Origin: Alphaproteobacteria bacterium
Lineage (GTDB): Bacteria; Pseudomonadota; Alphaproteobacteria; Micavibrionales; SZUA-601
Length of the DNA: 64,000 bases
Assembly: GCA_965216395.1 (NCBI GenBank)
Contig: OZ244156.1
Coordinates: 328,765-392,764 of the forward strand
Direction: 5' to 3'
Position 1 is the first letter of the stretch; each line of letters starts with the position of its first letter. Below are positions 8,555 through 62,175 of the stretch, piece after piece. The notes below the pieces were generated by a model. It was not told the DNA's origin and ran no database searches. It was given only the letters and a program-made list of their open reading frames with translations. The position numbers and the translations under genes are program-made.

Positions 8555-8652
8555 TTTTTTCTATTTTTTATTAAAGACTGTCATTATTTATCAACTATTT
8601 TACTCGATAATCAATGGTTCAAATCTAAAAAATGAAAATTTAAGGAATAAAA

Positions 8653-10138: not shown

Positions 10139-10231
10139 TTTTTTTAATCTCCTGATTTTTTTATCTTGCAAAGAATCGAATGATCATTATTATACGCATC
10201 CGCATCAGAATTTTAAATCTTTTGTTATGAT

Positions 10232-10306
10232 GCGAGTGTAGCTCAGCGGTAGAGCATCTCGTTGCCAACGAGAAGGTCGAGGGTTCGAACCCCTTCACTC
10301 GCTCCA
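10232..10306 (+). tRNA. tRNA-Gly (anticodon GCC), CCA encoded
   Basis: Manual cloverleaf: acceptor GCGAGTG/CACTCGC, anticodon stem TCTCG/CGAGA with loop TTGCCAA, T-loop TTCGAAC. Confidence 0.9.
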
Positions 10307-10400
10307 TTCTTTCTGATAAATTTCATCCTCTCTTAATGTTTTTGGTGCAGATTTCATAAAATAATATCTAACCATATACACTATTGAAGAAAGTTTTGTT

Positions 10401-11525: not shown

Positions 11526-11564
11526 ACACAAGTCTTGAATAATTAAAATAAAAACCTTAGAAAT

Positions 11565-11598
11565 AAGAGCTGAACATGCCGTTCAGCTCTTTTATTTT
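11565..11598 (+). terminator. Rho-independent terminator
   Basis: AAGAGCTGAAC-ATGCC-GTTCAGCTCTT hairpin followed by TTATTTTG. It lies between the two M42 genes. Confidence 0.7.
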
Positions 11599-11615
11599 GT
11601 TATAAGGATTTTTTC

Positions 11616-12665
11616 ATGACTTTAAATATCAATCTCCTTAAGGAAATTTGTGTTACCCCGGGAACATCTGGTGATGAAGAACGTATTCGCAAGGTAATCT
11701 TGCGTGAGATCAAAGGATTGGTTGATAAGGTTGATATTGACCATATGGGTAATGTTATTGCTCTTAAAAAAGGCAAATCTTCAGAAAAAAAAGCTATGGC
11801 CGCTGCGCATATGGACGAAATTGGTTTTATGATCACGCATATTGATAAGATGGGGTTTGGGCATTTTAAACCTATTGGAGGTTTTGATCCAAAAACACTA
11901 ACCGCTCAACGTGTCATCATCCATGGTAAAAAAGATATTATTGGTGTGATGGGGTCAAAAGCCGTTCATGTCATGTCACCTGAAGAAAAGAAGAAATCTC
12001 CTGAATTAAAAGATTATTTTATTGATTTTGGTTTGCCTGAAAAAGAAGTTAAAAAACTAATTTCGGTTGGTGATTTTATCACACGTGATCGAGATCTAAT
12101 TGAAATGGGTGATAACGTCTGTACAAAGTCAATCGATAACCGTGTATCGGTTTTTATTCTAATTGAGACACTCCGTACCTTGAAGAAGAAAAAGCCAGCC
12201 TATGATTTTTATGCGACATTTACAGTGCAAGAAGAAGTAGGGATGCGTGGCGCTAAAACAGCAGCTTATAAAATAAACCCTGATTTTGCCTTTGGTTTAG
12301 ATGTAACAGCAGCAAGTGATACACCAGGAACAGCCGAAAAAGATTATTGTACAAAGTTAGGTGAGGGAACTGCGATTAAAGTTATGGATGGTGGTACGAT
12401 ATCTGATGTTCGTATGGTTAGATTTATGGAGAAAATAGCTAAAGCAAAAAAAATTAAATATCAAAAAGAGGTCATGCTTGCTGGGGGCACAGATACTTTT
12501 GCCATGCAATTGGCTGGTGACGGTTGTATAGCGGGGGCAATTTCAATCCCTAATCGTTACATGCATACTGTTGTTGAAATGAGTAATAAAAAAGATGTTG
12601 ATGGCGCTGTAAAACTTCTTACCGCTTGCCTTCAAGATCTCGATTCATTCAACATGAAATGGTAG
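11616..12665 (+). CDS. M42-family metallo-aminopeptidase, copy 2
   Basis: 349 aa. Has AAHMDEIGF, SIDNRV, QEEVGMRGA and RYMHTVVE motifs. Confidence 0.8.
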   Translation: MTLNINLLKEICVTPGTSGDEERIRKVILREIKGLVDKVDIDHMGNVIALKKGKSSEKKAMAAAHMDEIGFMITHIDKMGFGHFKPIGGFDPKTLTAQRVIIHGKKDIIGVMGSKAVHVMSPEEKKKSPELKDYFIDFGLPEKEVKKLISVGDFITRDRDLIEMGDNVCTKSIDNRVSVFILIETLRTLKKKKPAYDFYATFTVQEEVGMRGAKTAAYKINPDFAFGLDVTAASDTPGTAEKDYCTKLGEGTAIKVMDGGTISDVRMVRFMEKIAKAKKIKYQKEVMLAGGTDTFAMQLAGDGCIAGAISIPNRYMHTVVEMSNKKDVDGAVKLLTACLQDLDSFNMKW

Positions 12666-13402
12666 AACAAAATAAAGAACGCATTGCCAAAGTGATGGCG
12701 CGCGCAGGTTTGTGCTCGCGCCGTGATGCGGAACGATGGATTACCGATGGCCGTGTTGTTGTTAATGGTGAAAACTTGACCACGCCTGCGCATAAAGTAT
12801 CTGAAGAAGATGTTGTTCTTGTTGATGGTAAACCGTTACCGATGAAAGAAAAAACCCGCGTTTGGCTTTACTATAAACCGATTGGCTTGGTTACTTCAGC
12901 GCGTGATGAGCAAGGGCGGCGAACGGTTTTTGATGTGTTGCCGAAAAATATGCCCCGTGTTATTTCTGTGGGTCGTTTGGACTTAAATTCGGAAGGCTTA
13001 CTTATTTTAACCAATGATGGTGCTTTGGCCCGCATGTTAGAACTGCCTTCAAATAAATTTGAGCGTATCTATCGGGTACGTGTTTTAGGAGACTTGGATA
13101 TAAAGAAATTACATGCTCTTAAAAAAGGGATTACGGTCGATGGTGTGCGTTACGGCTCTATTAAGGTTAAGGTCGAAGACGCGCATCATAAAGGGGCTAA
13201 TCATTGGTTGCGTATTACCCTTCAAGAAGGAAAAAACCGCGAAATTCGTAAGGTTATGGAAGCTGTGGGTTTACATGTTAATCGCCTTATTCGTTTGTCA
13301 TATGGTCCTTTTAACATAGGACGCGTAAAGCGTGGCACTGTTCAGGAAATTCATAGTGATGTTATTGAGAAACTGTTGCAACAGGCTCAGGTTAAAAATT
13401 AG
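12659..13402 (+). CDS. RsuA/RluB-family rRNA pseudouridine synthase
   Basis: S4 domain (RIAKVMARAGLCSRRDAERWI) plus the catalytic GRLDLNSEGLLILTNDG motif. The start is taken at ATG 12659 (MVEQNK...). The track ORF begins at a TTG at 12626, inside the previous gene. Confidence 0.8.
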   Translation: MVEQNKERIAKVMARAGLCSRRDAERWITDGRVVVNGENLTTPAHKVSEEDVVLVDGKPLPMKEKTRVWLYYKPIGLVTSARDEQGRRTVFDVLPKNMPRVISVGRLDLNSEGLLILTNDGALARMLELPSNKFERIYRVRVLGDLDIKKLHALKKGITVDGVRYGSIKVKVEDAHHKGANHWLRITLQEGKNREIRKVMEAVGLHVNRLIRLSYGPFNIGRVKRGTVQEIHSDVIEKLLQQAQVKN

Positions 13403-13984
13403 ATGCGTATCGTTTCTGGAAAATTCCGTGGTCGAAAAATTTTTGTGCCTAATACCCATGCAACGCGCCCCACCATGGATCGAACGCGCGAGGCTGTTTT
13501 TAATATGTTGCTTAATGCCCCGTGGGCGCAACAATCCGATGGACGGTCTATTTTAAATGGTGCGGTTGTTTTAGATGTCTTTGCTGGTTCGGGAGCTTAT
13601 GGTTTGGAAGCATTATCGCATCGGGCGAAATGTGTCACATTTCTTGATCATGGTAAAGAAGCCATTCAAGCGATTAAACGAAATATTGAGACGTTTAATG
13701 TTCAAGAAATGACCCGTATTTTACGCCAATCACCACTCAAGATTTCTAATCGTAGAGAAGGGAATGTGGCCGATATTGCTTTCTTTGATCCGCCTTATGG
13801 GGAAGATTTGATTATTCCATCGGTTGAAGCTCTGCACGTTAAAAACTGGATCAACGAAAAAACTTATTTAGTCTTTGAAACTGAATCTAAAAAGAGCGAA
13901 ACTTTACCTGCTAATTTGGAAATTTTTTCACAGCGCGTTTATGGTAAAAGTAAAATATCAATAGGGTATTTGTTAAAAAGTTAA
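13403..13984 (+). CDS. rsmD: 16S rRNA (guanine966-N2)-methyltransferase RsmD
   Basis: MRIVSGKFRGRKIFVPNTHATRPTMDRTREAVFNML, VLDVFAGSGAYGLEALS and the DPPY motif. Confidence 0.85.
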   Translation: MRIVSGKFRGRKIFVPNTHATRPTMDRTREAVFNMLLNAPWAQQSDGRSILNGAVVLDVFAGSGAYGLEALSHRAKCVTFLDHGKEAIQAIKRNIETFNVQEMTRILRQSPLKISNRREGNVADIAFFDPPYGEDLIIPSVEALHVKNWINEKTYLVFETESKKSETLPANLEIFSQRVYGKSKISIGYLLKS

Positions 13985-14709
13985 GCTTTCTTACCAGAGT
14001 TATGACTGCCGCGAACGATGACATTAAGCGCGGCTATAACAGGATCCATGGGTTCTAAGGTTTTTTGCGCATCATCCAGCACCATCTCAACCATGCGAAT
14101 AGCACTGGGTCTTGGCATATCGGCTTCTAAATTGAAATATTCGGGGTCTTGACGCACGGCCGCATATACTTGTGCAATATCACCAGCCAATTTAGAACCA
14201 AATACTGATAATTTTTCAACATTCGCATCAAAGATAGAACGACTGAGCGGGGGGCGTTGATGGATAAAATCGCCCGCCTCTTCATATTGCGCTTTTTTAT
14301 CACTATCACGTAAATTACGGAGCAATTCATTATATATGGTGATGAACGCTTCGCATTTAATTTTATTCTCGGTCAATTCGCCCGCCAATGATGAGGCTAA
14401 AACGGCTTTTTCACGTTTTTGCACCGATTCTTCATTCATCATCATCTGTGAGATGTGTTTTTCTTGATTTTTAGAGATTTTTCTCAAACCCGAGTGGAGG
14501 AATAGCCCCACTAAAAACAAACCAATAATAGGACCGATCAGGCTGGCCAAAGGTGCAAACCACTCATTATTATTCACAAGCCATTGTTTCCATGACATCG
14601 TGTAAGTTGTATTATGAATGGCGTTTGTCAGATCCGGGAGTTGAGCCCATGCCCCTTTTACGCCGATGAATAAAAAGGCTGTTGCGGCACATATAAATTT
14701 TTTAACCAT
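13981..14709 (-). CDS. Hypothetical membrane-associated protein
   Basis: Signal-like N-terminus plus one TM (LIGPIIGLFLVGLFLH). No recognisable domain. Confidence 0.4.
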   Translation of the reverse strand: MVKKFICAATAFLFIGVKGAWAQLPDLTNAIHNTTYTMSWKQWLVNNNEWFAPLASLIGPIIGLFLVGLFLHSGLRKISKNQEKHISQMMMNEESVQKREKAVLASSLAGELTENKIKCEAFITIYNELLRNLRDSDKKAQYEEAGDFIHQRPPLSRSIFDANVEKLSVFGSKLAGDIAQVYAAVRQDPEYFNLEADMPRPSAIRMVEMVLDDAQKTLEPMDPVIAALNVIVRGSHNSGKKA

Positions 14710-14792
14710 AGAAAATCCAATTGATTACTTAATAAAAAATCAGTCTAATATGGATATATTACTGATTTGTTACCGCTTTTGCGACTTAAAAA

Positions 14793-14869
14793 TGGTCGGG
14801 GCGACTAGATTCGAACTAGCGACCTCTTGTACCCAAAACAAGCGCGCTACCAGGCTGCGCCACGCCCCG
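14793..14869 (-). tRNA. tRNA-Pro (anticodon UGG), CCA encoded
   Basis: The reverse complement folds as acceptor CGGGGCG/CGCCCCG, anticodon stem CTTGT/ACAAG with loop TTTGGGT, T-loop TTCGAAT. Confidence 0.9.
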
Positions 14870-14940
14870 ACACTAAGACAACGGTTTTTAACATCTCTTA
14901 GAACAAAAGAAAAGAGAAAATTAAATTCTTTGCATATTTT

Positions 14941-15768
14941 TTAAAGACTATGAGATACGACATAGTCTAAAATTGCGTTGAAACATTTTTGTCTTTTATC
15001 ATCATATTTTTCCAAGATTTCTGCACATTCTTCAAGATGTTTCTGTATAGACTTTATATTCTGATTAAATTTAGATTGATAGACCAGTTTGTTATCGAGT
15101 AAATCACGCCCTGATATTTCATAGTGAAGACTTGTAGATAACATGTGACCATTACCAATCTTTTTTTCAATAACAGCAGGAAAAACTAAGCCTTTACTAT
15201 TTGTCATATATCCTAAAACTTCAACATCTTCTTCTATGTCAATTACGGGGCCGGCATTGTAGACGGCGGGACAGTCCATTTTACTGTGGCCTGGTAAATA
15301 TAGCGATGACTTTAAAACCACCATATGCGAACTTGTTTGCTTTCTTATTGGATCGGTTAGTTTATTAATGGGGCCAGAGGAAGTGGCTGAATATAAACCT
15401 AATGGTTTTAAATGATTATCGGAAATTTTTGTGTTAATTTTTTCGTTTGTAAGATCATTATTAAATATGATCTCTTGCCCTGCCCAATATTTTCCTCTGC
15501 ATATACCTATATATTTTCCTCCATTTTTAATAAAGTCATGGATAAGATCTTGTCCGTTATTTTTGAGTTGTTTTGAGCAATGTTTTGATTCTCCGCCGGA
15601 GATGACAAGTACGCCATCGAAATTTTCTTTTAATATACCGTTCAAAATATCTGACGCGGTAATTTTAAAGTAATTTAGCTTATTTTTTGCAGCATAATTT
15701 TTCAAAGAGTGATCAATTGGATAATCAACAGTGATTTGATCATCAAATAACATGATTGTTTTAGACAT
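14941..15768 (-). CDS. Class-I glutamine-amidotransferase-like / biotin-protein-ligase N-terminal (BPL_N)-like protein
   Basis: VLVISGGES...FIKNGGKYIGICRGKYWAG resembles the BPL_N/GATase1-like GGxYxGxCAGAY segment. The gene is AT-rich. The call rests on pattern memory only. Confidence 0.4.
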   Translation of the reverse strand: MSKTIMLFDDQITVDYPIDHSLKNYAAKNKLNYFKITASDILNGILKENFDGVLVISGGESKHCSKQLKNNGQDLIHDFIKNGGKYIGICRGKYWAGQEIIFNNDLTNEKINTKISDNHLKPLGLYSATSSGPINKLTDPIRKQTSSHMVVLKSSLYLPGHSKMDCPAVYNAGPVIDIEEDVEVLGYMTNSKGLVFPAVIEKKIGNGHMLSTSLHYEISGRDLLDNKLVYQSKFNQNIKSIQKHLEECAEILEKYDDKRQKCFNAILDYVVSHSL

Positions 15769-15805
15769 GAAATTCAGACCCTTAAAACTCTTTAAAAAAG
15801 ATAAA

Positions 15806-16321
15806 TTACGATTTTAGATTGTTTCTTGTTTTCATGATTAAGCGACCAAGATGATTCTGTCCTTGACCTGTTTTAAGGCAAAAACCAAAAAAATTATCAT
15901 TCCAATCATTACCTTCAATCAAAAGAGCATCCTCTTTATTCAACAACATATTTTTTAATTCAAGGTTTTTATCGCTAAATTTTTGTTCAATAAGCATCCC
16001 CATTGCTTGAATACGCAGATTATCTGTTAAATCTTCACGTATTTGAAATTCATTTGTGCGACTAAAATCTTTTGCTTTCCCAGGTTTCATATTCTGAATC
16101 ATTTGCCTTTGTTTAAAAGATGAACTTTTCCATGCTTGATAGGCATTTTCAACAGTTTCAAAGACCATTTCCGGAAGTTCTTTTTTATTGATAATTTCAG
16201 CAGGCAATATCACGTTGCAAGGCCAAAAATTACTAAGAAAACGATTCTCTCCTTGAAACGCCATAACGATATTGAGTTGCTCTTTTTCTTTGCCGTGAAT
16301 AATTGAAACGGATGTATTCAT
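15806..16321 (-). CDS. NADAR (YbiA/DUF1768) family protein
   Basis: FLSNFWPC...F.TVENAYQAWK and a downstream GNDWNDNFFG-like segment match the NADAR pattern. Confidence 0.7.
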   Translation of the reverse strand: MNTSVSIIHGKEKEQLNIVMAFQGENRFLSNFWPCNVILPAEIINKKELPEMVFETVENAYQAWKSSSFKQRQMIQNMKPGKAKDFSRTNEFQIREDLTDNLRIQAMGMLIEQKFSDKNLELKNMLLNKEDALLIEGNDWNDNFFGFCLKTGQGQNHLGRLIMKTRNNLKS

Positions 16322-50355: not shown

Positions 50356-51267
50356 CTATATCTTTAGTGTCGTATTCTTTTTTGCTGAAGAATAAGAGTT
50401 TTCTTTATGATCATCTATCTTCCAATAGGTTGGGTCGTTTTTACGAAAAAGAACTTTTCTTCTGGCTAAACGGAGTTTTCTATCCTTCATTTCTTGATTC
50501 TGTTTTTTGCGATATTCATTTGCACCATAGGTAAACCCTAAACCGCCCGTAATTTCGCAGATACCCGTTACGACTTTTCCTTGAACGATATTGATCACGC
50601 CTGAACCTATTTGAAATAGCGCACGACCAATGATCGTATATCCAGTCCCTTGTTTGATACGATAAAGGAGATTAATTTCTTCCTCCTTTTGAGCAGTAAT
50701 ATCTGAAACGACGTTGATATAGCCTTCTTTTTGTTTAATTTGATCTGTTATTTGTGGATTTTTCTGATTATCGTTTGAGACTTGTTCTTGCAAAGACACC
50801 AGATCAACTTGTGCATCATATATTTTCTTGCTCAACGGCACTGTGATTTGCTTTTTGTTATCCATCAAAAGAGACGTGATCCCCAGCCCAAGATAGGTTA
50901 AAAACGCCAAACCTCCCGCGATTTGTCCCCATTTTGTTGTCGCATCAAACATTTGAAAAGCATTTGTGCCTGCACCCATAAACATAAATCCGGCACGAAA
51001 ACCATTCGCCTGGGCTGTATTAACCGGTTTTTTCTTTTTCTCACGTTTTTTTATATATTCTTCACCGCCAATATAAATAACTGATCGACCAATATTGAGC
51101 AGAGATGTTTTGGTTTGTTCAAATTCACCAATCAGTGCTGACCCTATGCCGACCACAGCATTGGCACCAATATTCCACAGAAATAACTTACCCACCGATT
51201 TTGCATCGGGGGTCAGCTTATACCACTGGTTTACAGAGCTGTTTTTATCATCATAATTGGTTTGCAT
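50356..51267 (-). CDS. Hypothetical membrane protein
   Basis: 303 aa with Gly-rich hydrophobic segments and no recognisable domain. Confidence 0.4.
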   Translation of the reverse strand: MQTNYDDKNSSVNQWYKLTPDAKSVGKLFLWNIGANAVVGIGSALIGEFEQTKTSLLNIGRSVIYIGGEEYIKKREKKKKPVNTAQANGFRAGFMFMGAGTNAFQMFDATTKWGQIAGGLAFLTYLGLGITSLLMDNKKQITVPLSKKIYDAQVDLVSLQEQVSNDNQKNPQITDQIKQKEGYINVVSDITAQKEEEINLLYRIKQGTGYTIIGRALFQIGSGVINIVQGKVVTGICEITGGLGFTYGANEYRKKQNQEMKDRKLRLARRKVLFRKNDPTYWKIDDHKENSYSSAKKNTTLKI

Positions 51268-51394
51268 GAAGACCTCATAAAGTCACAGATTAAATTTAAC
51301 ATAATTTAATTTTTTGAGAAAGTAATTTTTGTGTTTTCTTCTTATTGCGCTCAACACAATGTCATGCTAAAACATGTCACAGTCTTTGTAAGAC

Positions 51395-51486
51395 GGAGAG
51401 GTGGCCGAGTGGCTTAAGGCGACGGTTTGCTAAATCGTTGTACGTGGAAACGCGTACCGTGGGTTCGAATCCCATCCTCTCCTCCA
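51395..51486 (+). tRNA. tRNA-Ser (anticodon GCU), long variable arm, CCA encoded
   Basis: Acceptor GGAGAGG/CCTCTCC, anticodon loop TTGCTAA, long extra arm (GTACGTGGAAACGCGTAC), T-loop TTCGAAT. Confidence 0.9.
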
Positions 51487-51607
51487 GTTTTGCACAATTT
51501 CTTGTGCGTAAACCATTGAAAAGATTTCATTTATAATTCATTTGATTTCATCCTATTGCATGTTGCGCTGCAATGTGTACCACAATGAGAACCATGAGGT
51601 GAACCAA

Positions 51608-52915
51608 ATGAAATATTTAACACTACGAAACGGATGGTATATTTATAATCGTCGTGTCCCAAATTGTTATAAAGAATTTGACACACGACAACGAATTAGA
51701 ATTGCGCTGAATACCAAATGTGAAAAAGTTGCCATGAAACAACTTCTCATCGTTAATGATGAAGTTGAAAATTATTGGAAACTGCTTGTTAAAGAACAAG
51801 AGACGCATTCTATTGATAAATATAAAAGATTGGTCACAACTGCCAAACAATTGGGCTTTACTTATGTCCCATCAAGTAAATTAACTGAAATCCCTTGGGA
51901 AGATTTCTTATCACGCTTTTTATCTCTTAAAAATCATATTCATCAAAAGGAATTGGTTGAAGTTGTTGCAGGAACAGACGACCAAAGGCAATTGCCGTTG
52001 TCCGAAGCTTTAGAGCGTTTTTGGCAATATTCCAAACCATTATTAATTACTAAAACACCCAATCAACAGCGAATTTGGAAAAATCCACGTAAAAAAGCAG
52101 TTCATAACTTTATCAAGCAAGTTGGTGACAAAAATATCTTTGAGATTACCAATCTTGATATGATTGCTTTGCGTGATTGGTGGCTAGAGCGTGTACAGAG
52201 TGACAATATTAAAGCTGATACGGTCAATAAAGACTTTACGCATTTAAAGGGCATTCTTGAAACGGTGAATACTCATGAACAGCTTAATATGGATATTGAT
52301 GTGATTTTCAAAAATATCTATCTCAAAGAAGATAGCACATCAACACGATTGCCATTTGAAACTGATTTTATCATCAATGAACTTTTAAACGATGATAATC
52401 TTACAGGAATTGAAGATGAAGCAAAATATATTCTTTATGCAATGGCTGAAACTGGCGCAAGACCGATTGAATTGCTCAATCTCAATGGCGAAGATATCTT
52501 TTTAAATGAAGATATTCCCCATATTTATATTCGTCCAAGAAAAGGATATTCTCTCAAAACTAAGGATAGTCAACGTAAAATTCCGCTTATTGGCTATGCT
52601 TTGAAAGCATTCAGAAAATATCCCAATGGGTTTTCAAGATATAGAGATAAATCAAGTCAGTTTTCACATTATATCAATGCGTTCTTGCGTGAAAAGAAAT
52701 TAAGACCCACCTTAGATCATACGCTTTACTCACTACGCCATAGTTTTCAAGATAGGCTTACAGAACATGAAATTCCCGATCGTATTCAGTGTCAATTGAT
52801 GGGGCATTCATTCAAAGCGAAAGGGCGTGTCACTTATGGTAAGGGTGCTAGTTTAAAGCATTTGAATGAAGTTATGAAGCGGATTAGTTTGTATGATAAA
52901 ATATTTTCACATTAA
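51608..52915 (+). CDS. Tyrosine-type site-specific integrase
   Basis: N-terminus MKYLTLRNGWYIYNRRVP... (an arm-type N-domain common in alphaproteobacterial island integrases). The catalytic region has ETGARPIEL, LYSLRHSF, LMGHS and ...TYG. The start is at internal Met 51608; the track ORF starts at 51542. Confidence 0.85.
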   Translation: MKYLTLRNGWYIYNRRVPNCYKEFDTRQRIRIALNTKCEKVAMKQLLIVNDEVENYWKLLVKEQETHSIDKYKRLVTTAKQLGFTYVPSSKLTEIPWEDFLSRFLSLKNHIHQKELVEVVAGTDDQRQLPLSEALERFWQYSKPLLITKTPNQQRIWKNPRKKAVHNFIKQVGDKNIFEITNLDMIALRDWWLERVQSDNIKADTVNKDFTHLKGILETVNTHEQLNMDIDVIFKNIYLKEDSTSTRLPFETDFIINELLNDDNLTGIEDEAKYILYAMAETGARPIELLNLNGEDIFLNEDIPHIYIRPRKGYSLKTKDSQRKIPLIGYALKAFRKYPNGFSRYRDKSSQFSHYINAFLREKKLRPTLDHTLYSLRHSFQDRLTEHEIPDRIQCQLMGHSFKAKGRVTYGKGASLKHLNEVMKRISLYDKIFSH

Positions 52916-52918
52916 AAT

Positions 52919-53821
52919 TTATCTCAAATGATTATCAAACATAAAGAAATACCATTTATTTTCTAATATTCTAACACACCCGTACTTTGAATTATTAGAA
53001 AGAAATTCAGCAAAGTAGTCTTCCAAACTAATTTGTTTATTTTTAAGATTGATTTCGATATCTTCATCTAACACAAACCACTTTTTTTCTTTTAAATAAT
53101 TAATCATCAAACTCCTATCTTCTCTCATTTCATCGAATTCTTTTGAAAAGTATTCCAATTCATTTGCTAATACTAATCTAACTTTTTTTAATTCATTTAG
53201 ATAATTTGAATGTGGATAAATACTATGAGCTATGAATAAATTTAAGAGATGTTTCTTACTAACTTTATAGTTATTAATAGGGTCTTTTATTAAAACTTTT
53301 TCATCTGTAACCTTATAAATTTTTTGAGAATATTTTGACTTACTGGTTAACTCCTTTTTTAAATAGCCAAAAAATTGATTTTCGTCAGGATAAATATCAA
53401 TTAGCCTATCTATACGCTCAACTGCGGAAAAGTACTCCGCGCTTTTTAAGTCTTTAGATATTTTAGAATATATATGCTTTTTGTGAGCATCTTCAATGTG
53501 AGTATAATGAAAATATCTAGCTCTTAAAATATTCCTGAAATTATTATAATTGACTAAAGTAAATATTAAAACCAAGATTAATAAAATTCGTTTGTATTTG
53601 TAATTAGTTAACTTTTGTTTTAGAACATCTAACTTATAAAATATTAACCCTAACACAAATAGTAAGATCAATTCAGGAATTGCATTTTTTAATACTGTAA
53701 TTATAAAATCATAATTGTTACTCTTAATAGCATCTGGGGCTAAAGCTTGAATTACTAATAATAAACCAGAAATAAATGAGAATAAAATACCTGCACGCTT
53801 AATTACAATATCAAAATTCAT
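52919..53821 (-). CDS. Hypothetical protein, 3 N-terminal TM segments plus a soluble domain of about 200 aa (island cargo)
   Basis: 300 aa. TM candidates are GILFSFISGLLLVIQALA, IPELILLFVLGLIFY and ILLILVLIFTLV. The rest is Y/K/N/F-rich with no motif I recognise. The DNA is very AT-rich. Confidence 0.5.
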   Translation of the reverse strand: MNFDIVIKRAGILFSFISGLLLVIQALAPDAIKSNNYDFIITVLKNAIPELILLFVLGLIFYKLDVLKQKLTNYKYKRILLILVLIFTLVNYNNFRNILRARYFHYTHIEDAHKKHIYSKISKDLKSAEYFSAVERIDRLIDIYPDENQFFGYLKKELTSKSKYSQKIYKVTDEKVLIKDPINNYKVSKKHLLNLFIAHSIYPHSNYLNELKKVRLVLANELEYFSKEFDEMREDRSLMINYLKEKKWFVLDEDIEINLKNKQISLEDYFAEFLSNNSKYGCVRILENKWYFFMFDNHLR

Positions 53822-53825
53822 AATT

Positions 53826-54941
53826 TCAAAATTTTATTTTATCTATTGTTTTTGTAATATCTCTGCTATTATCTTTTATCGAATTGTCTGTATCATTAAA
53901 ATAAGCTTTAGGCGGATTTTTCAAAAAATCAATATAATGTTTGATATCTGTTGATAAATTAGAATTTTTTGTTTTGTTTAAAATCAATGTAAGTTGTTTA
54001 ATCCTAATATTTTTATTCTTTAACTTTCCATTGTGACAGTCCCAAAATAGGCATCTAGCTAGCAAATGCATATTTAACTGTTTAAGAAATTTATTATTTT
54101 TGTTAACGCTATTTACTTTTTTAAATACAGTGAAAGCATCTTCTATTTTATTTTCTTTTAGCAAAGAAACTCCTTTTAAATACAAGGAGATTGGATAAAA
54201 TTTAGATTTTTCTGTTATTTCTATTTTATCAATATTCCTTTTAGATATTATTTTATAACCGTTATTATATTCAAAAATATCTAGTATTTGTTCTCCATCT
54301 TTAAAATGGGTATCAAAATATTCTTGATTTTCTAGAATACATTTTAAAATCATACATTCATCAACAGTGTGTAATCTTCTTAAGGGATCAGTATCATCGA
54401 GTAAAATCCTATCAAAAGCTTTATTAATAAACCATTTTGCTCTTGAAAATTGATGTACTCTTATCAAATTCCAAGCTGGTCTTAAATAAAAATTTCTTAT
54501 ATATCTCTCAAAATCTATGAAATTAGATGTAAATAATTCATAATCAGAAACTATATAATTAAGGATTTTTTCTTCGGCATCATACTCAGCCTTTGACAAT
54601 AAAAAAGACGTCATTTCAAAAATATCACTGAATTTATTCTTTTCATAAAACCTCTCAAGCTCTGGAAACTTTTTTCTAATCTTTAAAACCTCATCGGGTT
54701 CAATAAAATTCTGCTCATATAAGTAGTAATCATTCTCCTCTAAATAGTATGCTATCGAGCTAAAACCTAAATCATTTCTGAAGTATTTTGGTCTTTGTAT
54801 TGAGTAGCTTAAATTTTCAAGGTTTTCACTTCGTAAATAATCTATAAGCTTTTTCAAGACATTATCTGAAATATAGAATACACCATAAAGTGCAATGAAA
54901 ATGGGAATTACTTTTTTAAGTAATAAATTAGAATATTTCAT
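53826..54941 (-). CDS. Hypothetical protein, N-terminal membrane anchor plus a soluble, partly TPR-like domain (island cargo)
   Basis: 371 aa with anchor VIPIFIALYGVFYI. The C-terminal third is helical-repeat-like (ISLYLKGVSLLKENKIEDAFTVFKKV). A 4-nt gap separates it from the downstream gene. Confidence 0.5.
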   Translation of the reverse strand: MKYSNLLLKKVIPIFIALYGVFYISDNVLKKLIDYLRSENLENLSYSIQRPKYFRNDLGFSSIAYYLEENDYYLYEQNFIEPDEVLKIRKKFPELERFYEKNKFSDIFEMTSFLLSKAEYDAEEKILNYIVSDYELFTSNFIDFERYIRNFYLRPAWNLIRVHQFSRAKWFINKAFDRILLDDTDPLRRLHTVDECMILKCILENQEYFDTHFKDGEQILDIFEYNNGYKIISKRNIDKIEITEKSKFYPISLYLKGVSLLKENKIEDAFTVFKKVNSVNKNNKFLKQLNMHLLARCLFWDCHNGKLKNKNIRIKQLTLILNKTKNSNLSTDIKHYIDFLKNPPKAYFNDTDNSIKDNSRDITKTIDKIKF

Positions 54942-54990
54942 TCATTATAAATTTTACTTTTTTTGATTTAAATAGAAACTAAATTATTAA

Positions 54991-55024
54991 TTAAAACAAA
55001 ACAAGCATTACGGTTTACCGTAAT
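54991..55024 (-). terminator. Rho-independent terminator after the TrwC-type relaxase gene
   Basis: Hairpin ATTACGG-TTTA-CCGTAAT (55007-55024). On the minus strand GCTTGTTTTGTTTT follows it. Confidence 0.55.
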
Positions 55025-55058
55025 AAATAAATGTTTTCTATTAAAGTTAAAAAATATA

Positions 55059-57668
55059 TCATCTCCTCATCAACTCCAAAGCACCTATTCTGTCACCTGA
55101 TTGTTTGGTGGCATTGAGGAGTTCTTGCTTATCGTCGGTATAGATTGTCACGGCTTCACGTCCTCGTGAAACACTGACGTAAAATTGTTTTTGGTTTGAA
55201 GCGTTGAATGTTACGGTAGGTTGATTAATGAGAACATGGTCAACGGTTTTACCCTGTGCGCTGTAAGATGTATTAGCATAAGCATAGTCAAAATTCCCAT
55301 GTCTTTTATTTAAGATTATTGGACTGGTTTTATGGCTTGTTTCTTTAGTAGTTTTAATATTTCCATCTTTGGTAAAGCCAACCACTTTAAGAACTGTACC
55401 ATTATCAAGACGCTTGCCTTTCATATCATAACTGTTTTTGGTTATTCTGATTTCATCACCACGACTTAAATCAATTGGGCATGGTCGATACAAATCAAAA
55501 TAACGTGTCTTATTAAGTGGTAATTCGTGATTATTTCCTTGAATATCTGTGACAATTACACGTCCTTGATGATTATCCACAATTTGTAAAACACTGCCTC
55601 TTTTGATATTTTTTAGGTTTTGATGTGCTTGAATAATCAACCCCTTTTGATAATGACGCACATCTTGCTTATCCCCATCTGTTAAATACAGGCTTTGATA
55701 AGTAGTAAAATTCTTTTGCCTTTTACCGATGTAGTTCAGAGTTTTAAGCTTTTCACGAATACCTAAATTAAGTTCTCTGACATGATTGCGTGTTGGCGAT
55801 ATCACGAGAACAGATTTTTTCTGACCTTTCAGATCAATATAATCACTTATCAAGCTTTCAGATATTTTATCAATAGGAAGCTCAATGATTGAATTGTTTT
55901 CATCCAGTTGCGTAAAACCTTGCTCAATATTGCCCTGACTAATGGCATAAACTGCTTGTTTATAGCTTTCTTGTTTCTGTCTGAATATTTCATTGAGTGA
56001 AACATATGGAATTTGTCCAATCGTTTGTAAAATCCGCATAGCATCGCCTCTTTGTACGGCGCTATGTTGTCTTGGATCACCAACAAAAATAACACGCGCT
56101 TGTTTTTCTTCCGCCAGTTCCAAAATCAGATTTGCATCTTGCGCGCCAAGCATACCCGCCTCATCAATCAAAATAACTTGTCCTTGGATGTCGTGTTGGA
56201 TTGTCTCATTATTAAGCAGTTGAAACACCGTATCAGCATGTTCAAATCCCTCATGGCGTAAAACATCACGTGACGCTGTCGCAGTCGGCGCAAAAATGGA
56301 AACTTTAAAACCTTGATATTCAATAAAAGGGATGAGGGTTTTAAACAGCGTGGTTTTACCTGTTCCTGCGCCACCGCGCACCATTGTCAGAAAATCTTTT
56401 GAACGCATGATATGTTTAAGAGCTTTTTGTTGTTCATTTCCAAGATGTAATTCTAGGGTTTCATCAAAACGCTCATCAAAGGCAGGGTATTTACCAATCC
56501 CGCGACGGGCAATATCAATCATCTGTTTTTCTTCATCATGGACTTTATGGCTTGTGTAGAGATATTGTGTCCCAGATTTAACCTTAAAGAGTTTAGTATT
56601 ATTGGCAAACTTTTCGTCAATTGCCGCTAATGTGACATCCTTATTATCTATCGCATAATAATAGGCATGGGTTAAAATCTGTGTTTTACGCCTTACAGAA
56701 TTACGGGTAAAAGATTTTTCAATAGCAAAATTAACCGTTTTATGTGCGTTCAAATCAAGATTTTGTGTGGGTTGTTCTTCGGGTTCATCATCAATGCCAT
56801 ATTCGGTTAGTTGGTCTTGCCATTGTTCTTTTAATTGTGGAAGCGTTAGCGTATTATTCTTGCGCTGTCTAGTTTGTGCGCCAAGTTGGTCTAGAGCTTT
56901 AGCATTGGTAATATTCTTAGACTTGGCGACTTCGCCAATCAAATTGGTGCGTTTTGAAAAAAGCGCGATGGCATTTTTGGGAACAACCGATAGTTCAAAA
57001 CCATTACTGGTTTTTCGAATACCATAGCCCAATTCACTGTAACGGTCGGCTAAACGCTTTAAAAATCGAGCTTGGTAATAAGGCATATCTTTTTTAATCT
57101 GATAAAATTGTCCTGCTTTAAAGCGTTGTTCAACCTCATCATAGGTAGTATTAAAGACAAAAATATGCTGATGAACGTGGCAATCGGGCGCAAAATTTTC
57201 AACAGGGCGGGCGGTCAAATGAGTAAAGTCACACCAAATCATTTCGCCTGTGACACGATCATCATTTTTACCATGTTTGCGGATGCGTGTTTGGGTTGCA
57301 GTTTCGATTTCCAACATGGTTTCATAAACACAAGTTTGAAAGGCTTGTAAGATAGTTTTATCAAGTGTTATCCCATAAAGAATAGACACAGATTTAGGAC
57401 AATGGAAACTTATATCATAACCAACGCGTCGATAATCAAATGTTCTTGGTGTTAAGGCTTGTCCAGTTTGGGGATTGATATTATCGCACAATAAATCAAA
57501 AGTTGATTTTATGATGGGCTTATCCTTTAAATCAAGTCGTTCGGCAATTTTACCGTAAAAATGACCGCTTGATTCTTGCCCCTCAATATAATAATCCGCC
57601 TTTGATAAAGAGGAAGCAAAATAAGTTTTTGTTTGGACAATATTACTTGATTGGTGCATACGTATCAT
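55059..57668 (-). CDS. TrwC/TraA-type (MOBF-like) conjugative relaxase fused to a RecD-like helicase
   Basis: N-terminal TrwC relaxase pattern (...ADYYIEGQESSGHFYGK...; THLTARPVENFAPDCHVHQHIFVFN histidine triad). Helicase Walker A GGAGTGKTT and Walker B ILIDEAGML. ATG 57668 is preceded by AAGGAG with an 8-nt spacer. The track's GTG at 57677 overlaps that SD. Confidence 0.85.
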   Translation of the reverse strand: MIRMHQSSNIVQTKTYFASSLSKADYYIEGQESSGHFYGKIAERLDLKDKPIIKSTFDLLCDNINPQTGQALTPRTFDYRRVGYDISFHCPKSVSILYGITLDKTILQAFQTCVYETMLEIETATQTRIRKHGKNDDRVTGEMIWCDFTHLTARPVENFAPDCHVHQHIFVFNTTYDEVEQRFKAGQFYQIKKDMPYYQARFLKRLADRYSELGYGIRKTSNGFELSVVPKNAIALFSKRTNLIGEVAKSKNITNAKALDQLGAQTRQRKNNTLTLPQLKEQWQDQLTEYGIDDEPEEQPTQNLDLNAHKTVNFAIEKSFTRNSVRRKTQILTHAYYYAIDNKDVTLAAIDEKFANNTKLFKVKSGTQYLYTSHKVHDEEKQMIDIARRGIGKYPAFDERFDETLELHLGNEQQKALKHIMRSKDFLTMVRGGAGTGKTTLFKTLIPFIEYQGFKVSIFAPTATASRDVLRHEGFEHADTVFQLLNNETIQHDIQGQVILIDEAGMLGAQDANLILELAEEKQARVIFVGDPRQHSAVQRGDAMRILQTIGQIPYVSLNEIFRQKQESYKQAVYAISQGNIEQGFTQLDENNSIIELPIDKISESLISDYIDLKGQKKSVLVISPTRNHVRELNLGIREKLKTLNYIGKRQKNFTTYQSLYLTDGDKQDVRHYQKGLIIQAHQNLKNIKRGSVLQIVDNHQGRVIVTDIQGNNHELPLNKTRYFDLYRPCPIDLSRGDEIRITKNSYDMKGKRLDNGTVLKVVGFTKDGNIKTTKETSHKTSPIILNKRHGNFDYAYANTSYSAQGKTVDHVLINQPTVTFNASNQKQFYVSVSRGREAVTIYTDDKQELLNATKQSGDRIGALELMRR

Positions 57669-57839
57669 AGAAATCACTCCTTAAATTAATCATGAAGTGA
57701 TTATTTACCCTATCTATAATGAGGGTGGTACGCACAGTCTGTACTCATAAATAAGGTTAATGTAATTTTTAACGCAGTGCTTTTATTTCTTTATGAATGA
57801 GTATGCAAAGTAAAATTTTAGGGGGATTTAAATTTCTTG

Positions 57840-57952: not shown

Positions 57953-59653
57953 CTATTTTATGTTCTTCTCAATTTCTAGAACATCGAATATTTTTTTAAG
58001 AGGGTATTTATCTTTATTATTAGGATAAATATTGCTAACATAACGTTCAAATGGTAAATTCATTTTAGCCATATCATTCTCATCGTATTTTTTATTGAAT
58101 TTTCTTTCAAAACGCTTCAAATATTGAAAATAACCATCCGCTAGTTCTCTTATATCAAAATGTGGCAGTTGATGAATTTTTTCTATTAAAAAAGATATGT
58201 TCATGAAAAGTAAATTCTCTATCTTTTTAAAAGTATTAGTCAAATCTTTCTCTAAGTTTAATCTTGCTTTGAATTCACCATTCAGATAACGATTAACTCC
58301 TGGCATACTAAAGAAATTATCTGTATAGATTATTATTGGATATATTATAAGATTTCTTTGCTTCAACTTTAATTCTTTATAGCTTTTGTCCTCAAATGGC
58401 TTATCCATAAGTTTTTTTAATTGCTTAACAATCTGTCCTGTTCCTTTTGATTTTGTATTATATTTGGTATCGATGGCACTTTTAATTTTTTCATAATCTA
58501 AAGAATTAATTGCCTTAGCAGGAAAATAGGCATCTTTGATTTCGAAAAGAAAAATAAATTTCCCAAATCTGTAATATGCATCGGGGAAACCATCATTTTT
58601 GTAATCATCAAATTTTAAGATTGAATGTTTCTTATTCAAATAATGAGAAAGGACTTTTTTAAAAATATGATCTTCAGTTACTTCTTGACCTAAAAAATTT
58701 TTAAAATCCGGAAAATTTTTAAATTTTGGATTATCAGCAATTCCGGAGCTTGCATAAAAATCAAAAACTAATCCCTCATAAGTTTTATTAATAATAAAAT
58801 TCCAATTAAAGACAAAAAACTTATTCGGTTGTATTTCAATTAAAGGTGATTGTTTTAGACCATTGAAATTCTTTTTATCTTTTACATACTCTTTTTGATA
58901 TTCATCAAGTTTTAAAGTGAAATTTTCGAGTATTCTCTCTGTAATATCTCCTTTTTTGATTACAAAGGGTGTTGAGTCTTTATCTGAAATATCTTTTGAC
59001 CAACTCGCTTGCAATGTATTTGTTATTGTCATTATATAATGCCAATAACTTTCTTTTTGATTATATCTCGTAAATGCATCAACATAGCCGTCAAATTCTG
59101 GATGTTTTTTTAGAACATTAAAAAACACAAGCGAGCGAATAAGATTATGCATTGGTCTAATATGATGATTAACCTCATATTGATCTATAAAAGTAGGCCA
59201 TGTTTTTACTTGAAAAAATTCGCCATTATCGTCATTTGAATTAAATGAATGCTCATATCTTTTATTTATCGTACTGGTAATTACTAAATATGCTTTAAAA
59301 AAATTCAATTCTTGTTCTGGTGTAGTGTCTACAATTGAAAAATCACGATAATTTATTAATTCATAATGAATGAATTCTAAGCTATATCTAATACTAAAAA
59401 TATCAACTCTTTGTTCAGTTTCATATTTTGAAAGTCGATCTAAAATTCGATTTCTTAAAACACTATCAAATCGTCTAGAAATTAAATCAAAAAGTTTTCT
59501 TTGAGTTGCTCTTTTACCCAAAAACAACTCAGCATTAATAAGGCAAAGCATACTAAGTGTCACATTCGATGGAATATCTTTTAGTAAATCTGTTAATTTT
59601 GGTATCTCATCATCGAAAATATCTGAGTAGGTAGGTGTAATAATAAATTCCAA
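57953..59653 (-). CDS. Hypothetical protein with C-terminal PD-(D/E)xK nuclease-like motif (island cargo)
   Basis: 566 aa. Residues 355-373 read GFPD-AYYRFGKFIFLF-EIK (D358/E371/K373, nt 58535-58582), followed by GQIVKQL. The N-terminal 340 aa or so are unassigned. Confidence 0.55.
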   Translation of the reverse strand: MEFIITPTYSDIFDDEIPKLTDLLKDIPSNVTLSMLCLINAELFLGKRATQRKLFDLISRRFDSVLRNRILDRLSKYETEQRVDIFSIRYSLEFIHYELINYRDFSIVDTTPEQELNFFKAYLVITSTINKRYEHSFNSNDDNGEFFQVKTWPTFIDQYEVNHHIRPMHNLIRSLVFFNVLKKHPEFDGYVDAFTRYNQKESYWHYIMTITNTLQASWSKDISDKDSTPFVIKKGDITERILENFTLKLDEYQKEYVKDKKNFNGLKQSPLIEIQPNKFFVFNWNFIINKTYEGLVFDFYASSGIADNPKFKNFPDFKNFLGQEVTEDHIFKKVLSHYLNKKHSILKFDDYKNDGFPDAYYRFGKFIFLFEIKDAYFPAKAINSLDYEKIKSAIDTKYNTKSKGTGQIVKQLKKLMDKPFEDKSYKELKLKQRNLIIYPIIIYTDNFFSMPGVNRYLNGEFKARLNLEKDLTNTFKKIENLLFMNISFLIEKIHQLPHFDIRELADGYFQYLKRFERKFNKKYDENDMAKMNLPFERYVSNIYPNNKDKYPLKKIFDVLEIEKNIK

Positions 59654-59664
59654 ATTATATATTT

Positions 59665-60429
59665 TTAACGTTTAAAACCACGATCACGTTTTTGTTCAAT
59701 CTCATTTTGGTTCTCTTTGAACTGGCTTTCTCTTAGCTTTTCGTAGGCTTGGTCAAGCTTATTATTTGTCATTTCAAGCTTATGTTCTTCAAAATCCTTC
59801 AATTTTTCATTCGGTATTTCTTGTGATTGATCAAACTTATTATTTTGCTCTTGAAGCTTTTCTTGATTTTGTAATTGATCAATTGGACTGTTTGTTTTTT
59901 TTATCCTTTCTTCGCTACTATTTCTTTCTTTATGATATTCTAGTGAGTCATTTGCTACTTCTTGTGATTGATCGAGAGTTTTATTTTGTTTTATTCGTTT
60001 ATCATATCTGACAATGTCATTTTTGTTTTCTCTAAATGGCTGTAGTTTTCGATTGTTTATAACTTCGTCACGCCCTTTTTCAATAAAGGTTGGTAATTCA
60101 TTCGTAGAAAATTCTTTTAACTTATCTACTAATTCATCGCCACCCATTTCCTTACAGTGGTCATGAGCAACTTTTTCTATCTTTTTAGCATTCTGATCTA
60201 ACTGTTCTTTGAAGCGTTTCTCTCTACTCTTTTTATCCTTTGATTTGTCAAGTTTATAGGTTCTTGGCGGTAATTTTTTAGCCCAACTAGGCTTTGGCGT
60301 ATAGTCTAGCTTATTATAAGTCGTGTCCTTATGATAATCCGCTTCAATTTGTTTTCTCTCATCTAAAAGCTCTTTAATTTCAATAAGATTTCTTAGAACA
60401 TCCCTTAATTCATTATAGTTTGTTGACAC
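59665..60429 (-). CDS. K/E/Q-rich protein with internal repeats, likely coiled-coil (island cargo)
   Basis: 254 aa with a GTG start and no obvious SD. Repeated peptide K(L/F)DQSQE(V/I), encoded by the 15-nt direct repeat TTCTTGTGATTGATC at 59818 and 59959. An 11-nt gap separates it from the downstream 566-aa gene. Confidence 0.45.
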   Translation of the reverse strand: MSTNYNELRDVLRNLIEIKELLDERKQIEADYHKDTTYNKLDYTPKPSWAKKLPPRTYKLDKSKDKKSREKRFKEQLDQNAKKIEKVAHDHCKEMGGDELVDKLKEFSTNELPTFIEKGRDEVINNRKLQPFRENKNDIVRYDKRIKQNKTLDQSQEVANDSLEYHKERNSSEERIKKTNSPIDQLQNQEKLQEQNNKFDQSQEIPNEKLKDFEEHKLEMTNNKLDQAYEKLRESQFKENQNEIEQKRDRGFKR

Positions 60430-60475: not shown

Positions 60476-60847
60476 ATGAGCGAGTTTGTGGAAACACCAG
60501 AAAGATTAAAAGCCTACAATACAGAAAATATCGAGTTTAAAGACAAGGCTCGAAGACTTATCATTAAAGAATTAGGATTTGAACCGAACCTTAGAGCTTC
60601 TTTAGGATTTGAATTACTGATAAGACATATGTTAAAAAATGTTTACATAGGTAAGCTTTCGAAAAAAAAGCTTAGACAGCATTTATTAGTTTTGTGTAAT
60701 GCCACACGAGATAGTATTAGACGAGAATGCCCCGAACAAGTTTATCTCTTAGAGAAAAAACGTCCTAGCGTTTCTTACCTCTATCTTGGGCTTGGTTTTC
60801 TCGGGCTTTGTCTTCTTGGTGTTCTAGCATTTTTTTGGTTTGGCTAA
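60476..60847 (+). CDS. Small basic protein, possible DNA-binding regulator, hydrophobic C-terminus (island cargo)
   Basis: Strong SD (GAGGTG) 7 nt before the ATG. 123 aa. The last 28 codons or so are antisense to the K/E-rich 3' end of the relaxase gene, which mechanically yields a Leu/Phe-rich tail. Confidence 0.45.
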   Translation: MSEFVETPERLKAYNTENIEFKDKARRLIIKELGFEPNLRASLGFELLIRHMLKNVYIGKLSKKKLRQHLLVLCNATRDSIRRECPEQVYLLEKKRPSVSYLYLGLGFLGLCLLGVLAFFWFG

Positions 60848-61838
60848 AGGCATCTTCGAGTGTTCGTGAACGCGTTATACCATCGCCATTATCGCTAAAT
60901 TCGCTTTTTTTCTTTTCCCATCGTTCCTCTTTAAAATCTTTAATCAGTTTTTCAAAGCGTGCGCTGGCTTGTCCGATTTCATCTTTAGTGACCATGTTAA
61001 AAGCATTTTCAACTATCACTTTTTTCTTATATTGGATATCTTGTTTTTTCTCAGCTTTCTTTTCTTTACTCTGTGATCGCTCTTTTTTTAAATCCTCAAC
61101 TTTGGGGAGTTGCTTTATGATCGGTTGCAGTTTTTGCTCAACGTGTTTTTTCTTCTCACCCGTAAAGCGCATCAGGGAATGAACTTGGTTTTTATCACTA
61201 ACCAGAACGACACCACGCCTGCCAATCGCTAAATTGAAGCCTGCCTTTTTTAAGGCGGTTTGTAATTCTTGCGGGTTTGAGTGTTGTTGATAGAGTTTCT
61301 TTATGCGCGCTTTCAATTGTTTGGGCGTATAGCCATCACGAATAGTTTGTTGGCGTTCATTCATTGTGTCCCAATTGGAACCAAACTCAGCTTTGAGCGT
61401 TTTATGTTTAAAACGTTGTTCTAAATCACGCCCAAGTTTTTTATGAATGTAATAGTCATTTTTTGTGTCAATGACTTTACCTTGTTCTACATCCGTGCGT
61501 TGCCAGACAACATGAATATGGGGACGTCCGCCTTTTTCATGATAGACAACCGCGCGCGGTTGATTGGTTAACCCTAAGCGGTTTTCCATTTCATTGACAC
61601 TATATTGCCATTGTTGGGGTGTCATGGTTTCACCGATGGCAGGATTAATCTGTGCGTGATAAAGCCCTGTCTTGGCTTTGGTCATCTTTGCGGTCAGTTC
61701 CATGTCTTTCAAGGCTTGGGTGAGGTCTTGTGTCGCTGTACCCGTAATCTCAACCACGACAATACGCTCATTATCATCTTTAAGGAGATGTTGAGCTAAA
61801 CTCGCGCCATTGGAACGTTTCCCCCCTTTACAGATCAT
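60765..61838 (-). CDS. MobA/VirD2-family relaxase (mobilization nuclease domain)
   Basis: N-terminus MICKGGKRSNGASLAQHLLKDDNERIVVVEITG and YHEKGGRPHIHVVWQRTD (HxE...HxH metal triad). These match the alphaproteobacterial MILKGSQRGG...AAHLL...FHEKEGRRHAHCVW relaxase family as I recall it. Confidence 0.8.
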   Translation of the reverse strand: MICKGGKRSNGASLAQHLLKDDNERIVVVEITGTATQDLTQALKDMELTAKMTKAKTGLYHAQINPAIGETMTPQQWQYSVNEMENRLGLTNQPRAVVYHEKGGRPHIHVVWQRTDVEQGKVIDTKNDYYIHKKLGRDLEQRFKHKTLKAEFGSNWDTMNERQQTIRDGYTPKQLKARIKKLYQQHSNPQELQTALKKAGFNLAIGRRGVVLVSDKNQVHSLMRFTGEKKKHVEQKLQPIIKQLPKVEDLKKERSQSKEKKAEKKQDIQYKKKVIVENAFNMVTKDEIGQASARFEKLIKDFKEERWEKKKSEFSDNGDGITRSRTLEDAFSQTKKMLEHQEDKARENQAQDRGKKR

Positions 61839-62175
61839 ATCCTAGAGCTTGACGGAGATCTGTACGCATGGCTTCAATTTGTTTCAATAAAGATTGCCCT
61901 AATGCAACATCCGTTGGATTGCCACTATTGTAATGTTTGGCGATTTGATTGATATTCCCGCCAATCTTACCCCAAGAAGCCAAAAGCTTAATCAACAGGG
62001 CTGTTTCAGCGCCTGATTTCAGCGGTTTGGATTTCAGCGCGGTTTTGCGAAAATAATCCGCGCCACTTAACCCCGCTTGTTCACAGCGCGCCAGAAAGTT
62101 TTGTTTTTCCTGTGCTGTCAGGCGAAATTGCACCAATTCATTGCGCTGTCGCTTTTCACTTCTTTTTTTCTTCAT
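61828..62175 (-). CDS. mobC: MobC-family relaxosome accessory protein
   Basis: RNELVQFRLTAQEKQNFLARCEQAGLSGADYFRKTAL plus ...GGNINQIAKHYN is the MobC pattern. Overlaps the relaxase start by 11 nt. Confidence 0.8.
   Translation of the reverse strand: MKKKRSEKRQRNELVQFRLTAQEKQNFLARCEQAGLSGADYFRKTALKSKPLKSGAETALLIKLLASWGKIGGNINQIAKHYNSGNPTDVALGQSLLKQIEAMRTDLRQALGYDL

Follow-up and report, generated by a model that had tools for sequence, protein, structure and literature searches.

The stretch of DNA analysed in the current study (64,000 nt, hereafter the window; positions 328,765 – 392,764 of contig OZ244156.1 in the alphaproteobacterial assembly GCA_965216395.1) carries on its minus strand two adjacent genes, here termed A and B, which had been singled out from the sequence alone (hereafter the original prediction) as an extremely AT-rich, membrane-anchored cassette. 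Gene A occupies nt 54941..53826 (371 aa) and gene B nt 53821..52919, stop included (300 aa), with a spacer of 4 nt between them (nt 53822..53825, TGA-AATT-ATG); the same two open reading frames (ORFs) and the same spacer had been described before. Both proteins were characterised from the ORF listing, hydropathy, AlphaFold2 (AF2) models and family alignments, the latter comprising 23 sequences in the case of B. The G+C content is 0.247 for A and 0.245 for B, compared to 0.392 in the chromosome left of a nearby tRNA-Ser gene, so that the extreme AT-richness that had been claimed is real (24.6% for the pair vs 39% for the flanking chromosome). The amino acids enriched in the two proteins are K, N, F, Y, I and L, which includes the Y/F/N/K richness reported earlier. 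At the composition of the pair, a stop is expected at 9.7% of codons, and the chance of an open run of 371 or 300 codons is 4e-17 or 5e-14, respectively; the longest open stretch in the four non-coding frames of the region is 67 codons. Both ORFs are full length when compared with their homologues. Gene B ends 3 nt from a convergent integrase gene, as had been noted (52919 vs 52915), and the junction between them (nt 52916–52918) has no terminator-like structure; the two transcripts would overlap at their 3' ends.

Relatives of the two genes are rare, and those that were found keep the pair together. In word-indexed searches A had one relative (P0002, 32% identity), and B matched nothing but itself. 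Metagenomes were also scanned with a pattern, and this gave a contig (L001) in which an A homologue is followed by a B homologue (39% identity), again with a 4-nt gap; a further locus from the same scan (L002) was a spurious high-GC match and was discarded. A profile built from the two B proteins recovered P0005, and an exhaustive HMMER search with the B profile over 1.84 billion representative proteins gave 23 proteins (clusters) at E ≤ 1e-3, all of them 298–363 aa long except a fragment of 194 aa (P0012). At every readable locus B is immediately preceded, on the same strand, by an A homologue. Beside the window there are nine such independent loci: L003-5 (hmmsearch 1e-188), L006 (3e-106), L001 (1e-105), L008 (2e-42), L011 (6e-42), L012 (2e-37), L014, which stands for L013-18 (9e-34), L010, with the C-terminal part of the A homologue only (4e-22), and a JGI contig of 15,116 bp on which the A homologue P0002 is followed 14 nt downstream by the B homologue P0011. 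To these may be added L007, where the upstream gene is represented by no more than a 58-aa end (2e-7). At L009 the upstream gene is represented by its C-terminal 142 aa alone, an uninformative fragment for the A profile (E 0.02). The original prediction had staked its case partly on homologues being syntenic with each other, and this was found at every locus read.

The junctions between A and B in the relatives are 2- or 4-nt gaps, overlaps of 4 or 11 nt, or gaps of 14, 16 or 40 nt, and this tight spacing suggests that the two proteins may be co-translated as one unit. Beyond the pair, nothing in the gene content is conserved between loci. Since A stands beside B at every readable locus and nothing else is conserved around them, the pair is a self-contained module; it is a real, conserved and tightly coupled two-gene module, and its products form two undescribed protein families. 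Two irregularities were seen among the relatives. In L013 (nt 8817–9984) the A homologue is split into ORFs of 345 and 61 aa, while it is intact (372 aa) in the other near-identical contigs, e.g. L014 (nt 8866–9984). A frameshift or a mistake in the assembly could account for the split, which hints that the module may be able to decay. The 2.2 kb contig L001 has a 5' end (nt 1–200) of much higher G+C content and its A homologue lacks the N-terminal anchor region, so this contig may be chimeric or its A gene truncated.

No family in Pfam, NCBIfam, PADLOC or PHROGs accommodates A or B, and a Pfam search with all 23 members of the B family and nine of the A family gave nothing consistent. A literature search for a matching two-gene system of defence with tetratricopeptide repeat (TPR) and transmembrane (TM) partners found nothing specific. 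Scans of species-representative genomes, a set without the genome to which the window belongs, yielded no relatives of A or B, and the proteins of the window host are singletons. The earlier statement that the pair matches no named system and holds no recognisable motif is thus upheld by Pfam, NCBIfam, PADLOC and PHROGs, and by sequence and fold searches of the PDB, none of which gave a significant match. The two proteins were also considered as possible paralogues of one another, and this was rejected (hhalign probability 0.8%), the sole shared element being a TPR-like hairpin.

Protein A has a single hydrophobic segment (residues 6–29 by hydropathy), which is its N-terminal membrane anchor and which has no conserved charged residue in the family alignment. 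In the AF2 model (pLDDT 69, pTM 0.66), residues ~80–345 are confidently predicted as about 16 stacked helices, so that the whole soluble part would be an alpha-solenoid, TPR-like only in a generic sense. The anchor and the helical repeats had been anticipated, as had a large soluble region; the placing of the TPR-like part in the last third was too narrow, as the modelled solenoid spans all of the soluble part, and no TPR model is significant. Pfam gave sub-threshold matches for A only (Cohesin_load, 14.5 bits with a cut-off of 25.8; HEAT_Nup120, 15.7 bits with a cut-off of 29), and one relative of A matches TPR_2 weakly (E 0.038). Sequence and profile searches of the PDB found nothing for A. 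With Foldseek there was no match at E ≤ 0.001 in either the PDB (best E 0.15, TM ~0.2, non-significant) or the viral folds of BFVD; the nearest, non-significant neighbours in the PDB are the TPR proteins APC6, kinesin light chain, NprR and Rap. The most conserved motifs of the family are AKW (168–170), DTxP (183–186), YPxxLY (249–254) and LLARCxFW (293–300). One homologue (L008, nt 146–1513, 455 aa) has an additional soluble helical domain of ~100 aa ahead of the membrane anchor, which implies that the N-terminus of that member is cytoplasmic. This extra domain has no match in Pfam, and a likeness to an effector-associated domain, for which Pfam likewise gives no support, was set aside.

Protein B has two strong hydrophobic segments, at about 9–32 and 38–69, and a shorter third at 79–92 (hydropathy) that is 14–22 residues long in relatives. 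About three TM helices were assigned on this basis and from the alignment, at 12–27, 39–62 and 79–92. A helical region of ~200 aa follows, and the original description of three N-terminal TM helices with a soluble domain of about 200 aa is in agreement with this, given two strong segments and one shorter one. Counts of K/R vs D/E are 60/22 for the N-terminus (in), 30/47 for loop 1 (out) and 113/28 for loop 2 (in). Across the 23 aligned sequences R102, just after the third segment, is invariant, and P29, E50 (within TM2), P203, W248 and W290 are nearly so. Confidence in the AF2 model is limited to residues 175–300, all of which are helical. The soluble part consists of one TPR-like hairpin at ~118–150, with weak matches to TPR hairpins, followed by a C-terminal helical domain. 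In Pfam, 2 of the 23 family members weakly match YfiO and TPR_6; sequence and profile searches of the PDB returned a single TPR-hairpin match, weakly to BamD/YfiO, and nothing significant; and Foldseek found no match to the PDB at E ≤ 0.001. The structural comparison proposed for both proteins was carried out with AF2 and Foldseek, and neither has a fold match at that level.

Apart from the window, the only hosts that could be identified are Bacteroidota. Protein P0027 (MBS1683235.1) comes from a Bacteroidetes metagenome-assembled genome (MAG) and has a Por_Secre_tail gene at its locus, while L013-18, among which is the NCBI MAG GCA_043772905.1, have genes of the CarboxypepD_reg/TonB-receptor type; from this host and these neighbours, the family looks predominantly Bacteroidota. 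Where the flanking DNA is substantial, and the comparison was restricted to such loci, the G+C content of the pair is always below that of its flanks: 0.246 vs 0.384 in the window, 0.249 vs 0.388 in L014, 0.280 vs 0.335 in L003, 0.361 vs 0.394 in L012 and 0.406 vs 0.459 in L011. Taken with the scarcity of the family and its occurrence on the island described below, this low G+C content points to an accessory module that spreads horizontally.

In the window, the pair lies between the integrase gene and the gene of a MobF-type relaxase-helicase. The tyrosine integrase (DUF6538 and Phage_integrase; nt 51542..52915, plus strand) is convergent with B; its ORF is listed from a TTG at 51542, and the true start is likely to be the ATG at ~51608 according to the ORF translation. 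Next to it is tRNA-Ser(GCT) (nt 51395..51486, plus strand), presumably the site of integration and the left edge of the island. The relaxase (TrwC, AAA_30, TraI 2B and UvrD_C; nt 55059..57677, minus strand) is encoded upstream of A and B in the same orientation. A tyrosine integrase together with a MobF relaxase marks an integrative mobilizable element, and what is seen agrees with this, i.e. a recombinase beside a tRNA gene, and a relaxase that is unaccompanied by a full conjugation apparatus within the window. A and B are integrase-proximal cargo of this element, just as had been proposed. A second relaxase module, with a MobA/VirD2-like relaxase and a NikA/MobC-like partner, is found at nt 60765–62175 (minus strand), and the presence of two different relaxase systems suggests a composite or tandem mobilizable element. 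The window covers 12.5 kb of the island, and this part has no type IV secretion system or mating-pair genes. There is also no copy of the tRNA 3' end (attR) between nt 51300 and 64000, so the island runs beyond nt 64000. The best plasmid relative of the MobF relaxase is from Runella sp. SP2, a member of the Bacteroidota (39% identity), which is consistent with exchange with that phylum. We infer that this element brought in the module by horizontal transfer and that the donor was an unsampled, AT-rich organism, probably a member of the Bacteroidota.

The hairpin and T-tract that had been reported to follow the relaxase gene, upstream of the pair, was recovered as a terminator-like site (nt 55025..54991, minus strand) located 50 nt upstream of the start codon of A. 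It consists of a hairpin of 8 bp with a 4-nt loop (nt 55025..55006; dG -11.1 kcal/mol, z = -2.6) followed by the T-rich run CTTGTTTTGTTTT, and is one of three terminator-like sites found in the region, where 0.7 were expected. The AT-rich leader of A (nt 54942..54990, minus strand) showed no recognisable Shine-Dalgarno sequence on inspection. A promoter scan near the pair was at the level of chance (21 promoter-like matches vs 18.5 expected), and its best match, a -10 element ending 3 nt before the ATG of A, was rejected as the promoter for this start because it is too close; a candidate promoter could lie within the leader. Of the proposal that the pair is a stand-alone transcription unit, the upstream terminator-like hairpin stands and a promoter of its own does not, the matches being at chance, so that the proposal is plausible only.

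What the module does can be approached from its architecture, its neighbours and its distribution. Exclusion or abortive infection, directed against phage or foreign DNA, is the role that we consider most likely, with a probability of about 0.35. Neither A nor B carries a nuclease, NTPase or protease motif, and for this reason the action, if it is of this kind, would be exerted through the membrane. The two proteins would assemble into one membrane complex, in which the alpha-solenoid of A could be the part that binds a protein or peptide, as a sensor or scaffold. The three-helix membrane bundle of B, with the intramembrane Glu50 and the juxtamembrane Arg102, might then transduce the signal or itself act on the membrane, and invading phage or foreign DNA would be countered by membrane perturbation. 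Reading the pair as a sensor plus a multi-TM partner, which the original prediction had done, remains conditional and is based on this architecture. The fuller proposal, in which A and B are an undescribed, enzyme-free membrane system of immunity or exclusion that moves between phyla (from Bacteroidota to the window host) in mobilizable islands and defence hot spots, is put forward tentatively and is doubtful as a whole.

The neighbourhood that best fits a role in defence is that of L012, a Bacteroidota contig. Upstream, the pair is flanked by a PDC-M01A/B system (Septu-like; PtuA-like ATPase, E 2e-201, and its partner, 2e-111), and downstream there is an orphan of 281 aa and then the genes of an E1(ThiF)/JAB fusion, of a protein with the MBL fold and of a membrane protein resembling Csx27. 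The gene of a TraG/TrwB coupling protein is found 4 kb upstream of the pair. Viewed as a whole, nt 6389–15999 of this contig form a compact defence cluster that holds A and B and has a DUF4238 gene upstream as well; the 281-aa orphan has an N-terminus resembling a signal peptide. In L014 a Bro-N protein matching PDC-S13 (E 1e-114), 5 kb upstream of the pair, is a further candidate.

Several results weigh against a role in immunity or exclusion. The defence library used was PADLOC-DB v2.0.0, in which A, B and the L012 homologues were tested at E ≤ 1 or 0.001; none of these has a match, a negative that had been expected for A and B, and the search itself works, as the neighbouring genes of L012 match strongly in it. 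No enzymatic or known effector domain was recognised in either protein. The phage, plasmid (72,556 plasmids) and viral-contig collections contain no relatives, nor was any relative of A or B found in phage genomes with PHROGs and the phage and viral collections. Four of the contexts that exceed 4 kb are chromosomal and have no mobile or defence genes adjacent to the pair. The neighbours are purC, a methyltransferase, DinB_2, DUF1706 and AraC at L003; AraC, SDR and cupin at L011; and ceramidase, DegT and peptidase M55 on the JGI contig, and those tested at these three loci have no PADLOC match. The fourth context, L013-18, has a TonB receptor, a kinase and deo genes, with the PDC-S13 candidate 5 kb away. 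The association with mobile and defence islands that had been foreseen therefore applies to the window island, strongly to L012 and weakly to L014, and fails on contigs of 19, 5 and 15 kb with ordinary chromosomal neighbours. The membrane topology is a further difficulty. The membrane part of B is modelled at pLDDT < 55, the segment after its third hydrophobic stretch is also basic (77 K/R vs 15 D/E), which conflicts with three full spans, and the charges flanking the anchor of A are ambiguous under the positive-inside rule.

These same chromosomal contexts lend themselves to a second explanation, namely that A and B are an accessory cell-envelope module without a role in defence, whose inner-membrane-anchored helical-repeat proteins scaffold or chaperone components of the envelope or cell surface. 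It would be native to certain Bacteroidota, with the island simply as its carrier. This is possible, if doubtful in its turn. Both proteins are membrane-anchored, purely helical and without a catalytic motif, such weak similarities as appear are to TPR scaffolds, including BamD/YfiO, and most of the Bacteroidota contexts are chromosomal, beside a TonB-dependent receptor, a sensor kinase or metabolic genes. An envelope role of this sort is difficult to reconcile with a family so rare and patchy (23 clusters in 1.84 billion proteins) and with a G+C content of the pair that is below that of the flanks wherever these are substantial. The pair has, moreover, entered another genome by way of a mobilizable element, the L012 copy sits within a defence cluster on a conjugative-type element, and an envelope partner specific to Bacteroidota would be missing in the window host.

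Less probable is that the pair works for the mobile element itself, for example by entry or surface exclusion of related elements, or as a membrane component that aids mobilisation via the conjugation channel of a helper. In the window, the gene just upstream of the pair, in the same orientation, is that of the MobF relaxase, and the coupling protein of L012 is only 4 kb away; entry-exclusion proteins are typically small, fast-evolving and located in the inner membrane, which also counts in its favour. It is made unlikely by the four other contexts, which have no transfer genes, by the lack of relatives among the 72,556 plasmids, and by the terminator-like hairpin that separates the relaxase gene from the pair.

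It is more unlikely still that the genes are decaying passenger DNA and no longer functional in the window host. Their composition is unameliorated (G+C 0.246), no promoter or Shine-Dalgarno sequence is evident, and a relative (L013) has a split A gene; yet both ORFs are intact and full length in spite of the high stop expectation given above, and the conservation of motifs and gene order across the family points to selection. That A and B are secreted or surface proteins for host interaction (effector-like) in a host-associated bacterium, an option raised originally and in keeping with AT-rich, repeat-containing and island-borne genes, is very improbable given that the relatives are in contigs of environmental Bacteroidota, that the N-terminal membrane anchors are kept in all of them, and that neither secretion-system genes nor eukaryote-like domains were seen near the pair.

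Comparison with known systems leaves the proposed immunity or exclusion module as, at most, a variant of the small membrane modules carried in mobile and defence hot spots. RexA/RexB of phage lambda and KwaA/KwaB of Kiwa are likewise two-gene operons on mobile DNA with one multi-pass membrane partner, and the sensor-plus-membrane-actor logic proposed for A and B needs no nuclease or NTPase domain. There is, however, no sequence relationship to either, the PADLOC models (Kiwa included) do not match, both partners are membrane-anchored in the present case, and the candidate sensor is a helical-repeat solenoid. The membrane-tethered TPR scaffolds LapB/YciM, YfgM and BamD/YfiO resemble A in its layout of one anchor and then an alpha-alpha repeat solenoid, and BamD/YfiO weakly resembles B through its one TPR-like hairpin, but no TPR, LapB or YfiO model reaches threshold and, unlike these housekeeping scaffolds, the family is rare and horizontally mobile. 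The RRNPP receptors (NprR, Rap, PlcR) are among the top fold neighbours of the solenoid of A at non-significant values (E 0.46–1.0), which would fit a ligand-binding role; they are cytoplasmic proteins with HTH (helix-turn-helix) or phosphatase modules, whereas A is membrane-anchored and has no such modules.

A pairing of a multi-TM with a single-TM protein is also found in the 5:2 stators (MotAB, ExbBD, TolQR, GldLM, ZorAB), and E50 of B, conserved and acidic within TM2, has a parallel in GldL. In A and B, by contrast, the gene order is reversed, all TM segments of B are N-terminal and the anchor of A has no conserved charge. A stator of the TolQ/GldL type was rejected, as there is no MotA/ExbB, ExbD or OmpA-like domain and the fold matches of B to TolQ are noise (E 4.5–6.2, probability ≤ 0.07). 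The island itself resembles the integrative mobilizable elements found at tRNA genes (tRNA-Ser with an adjacent tyrosine integrase, relaxases and AT-rich cargo) and differs from a typical one in having two different relaxase systems.

If A and B do act in defence or exclusion, they would add a very small, purely membrane-based mechanism without an enzymatic domain, and an example of a module that crosses phylum boundaries on a mobilizable island. An accessory envelope scaffold would be of limited general interest. In either case, two orphan ORFs are now a defined pair of families with conserved motifs, a fixed gene order and about 20 relatives, and a direct experimental test of the pair is now cheap.

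The left flank of the island is made up of housekeeping genes (gatA/gatB, topA, dprA, rnr, clpX, hisS and ettA), and a predicted membrane protein of 303 aa with no significant match in Pfam is encoded in the interval from gatB to tRNA-Ser, close to the island but not part of it (nt 50356–51267, minus strand). An orphan of 566 aa (nt 57953–59653, minus strand; G+C 0.265), encoded between the MobF gene and the second relaxase module, has no match in Pfam, NCBIfam, PADLOC, PHROGs or the PDB. On visual inspection its sequence includes GFPDAYY...(12 aa)...FEIKD, similar to the motif of PD-(D/E)xK nucleases, and the gene is a second candidate for cargo or defence. The adjoining gene (nt 59665–60429, minus strand) specifies a low-complexity protein of 254 aa, rich in K/E/Q, that matches no family and whose gene has internal, imperfect DNA repeats of ~41 nt at nt 59729–59988.

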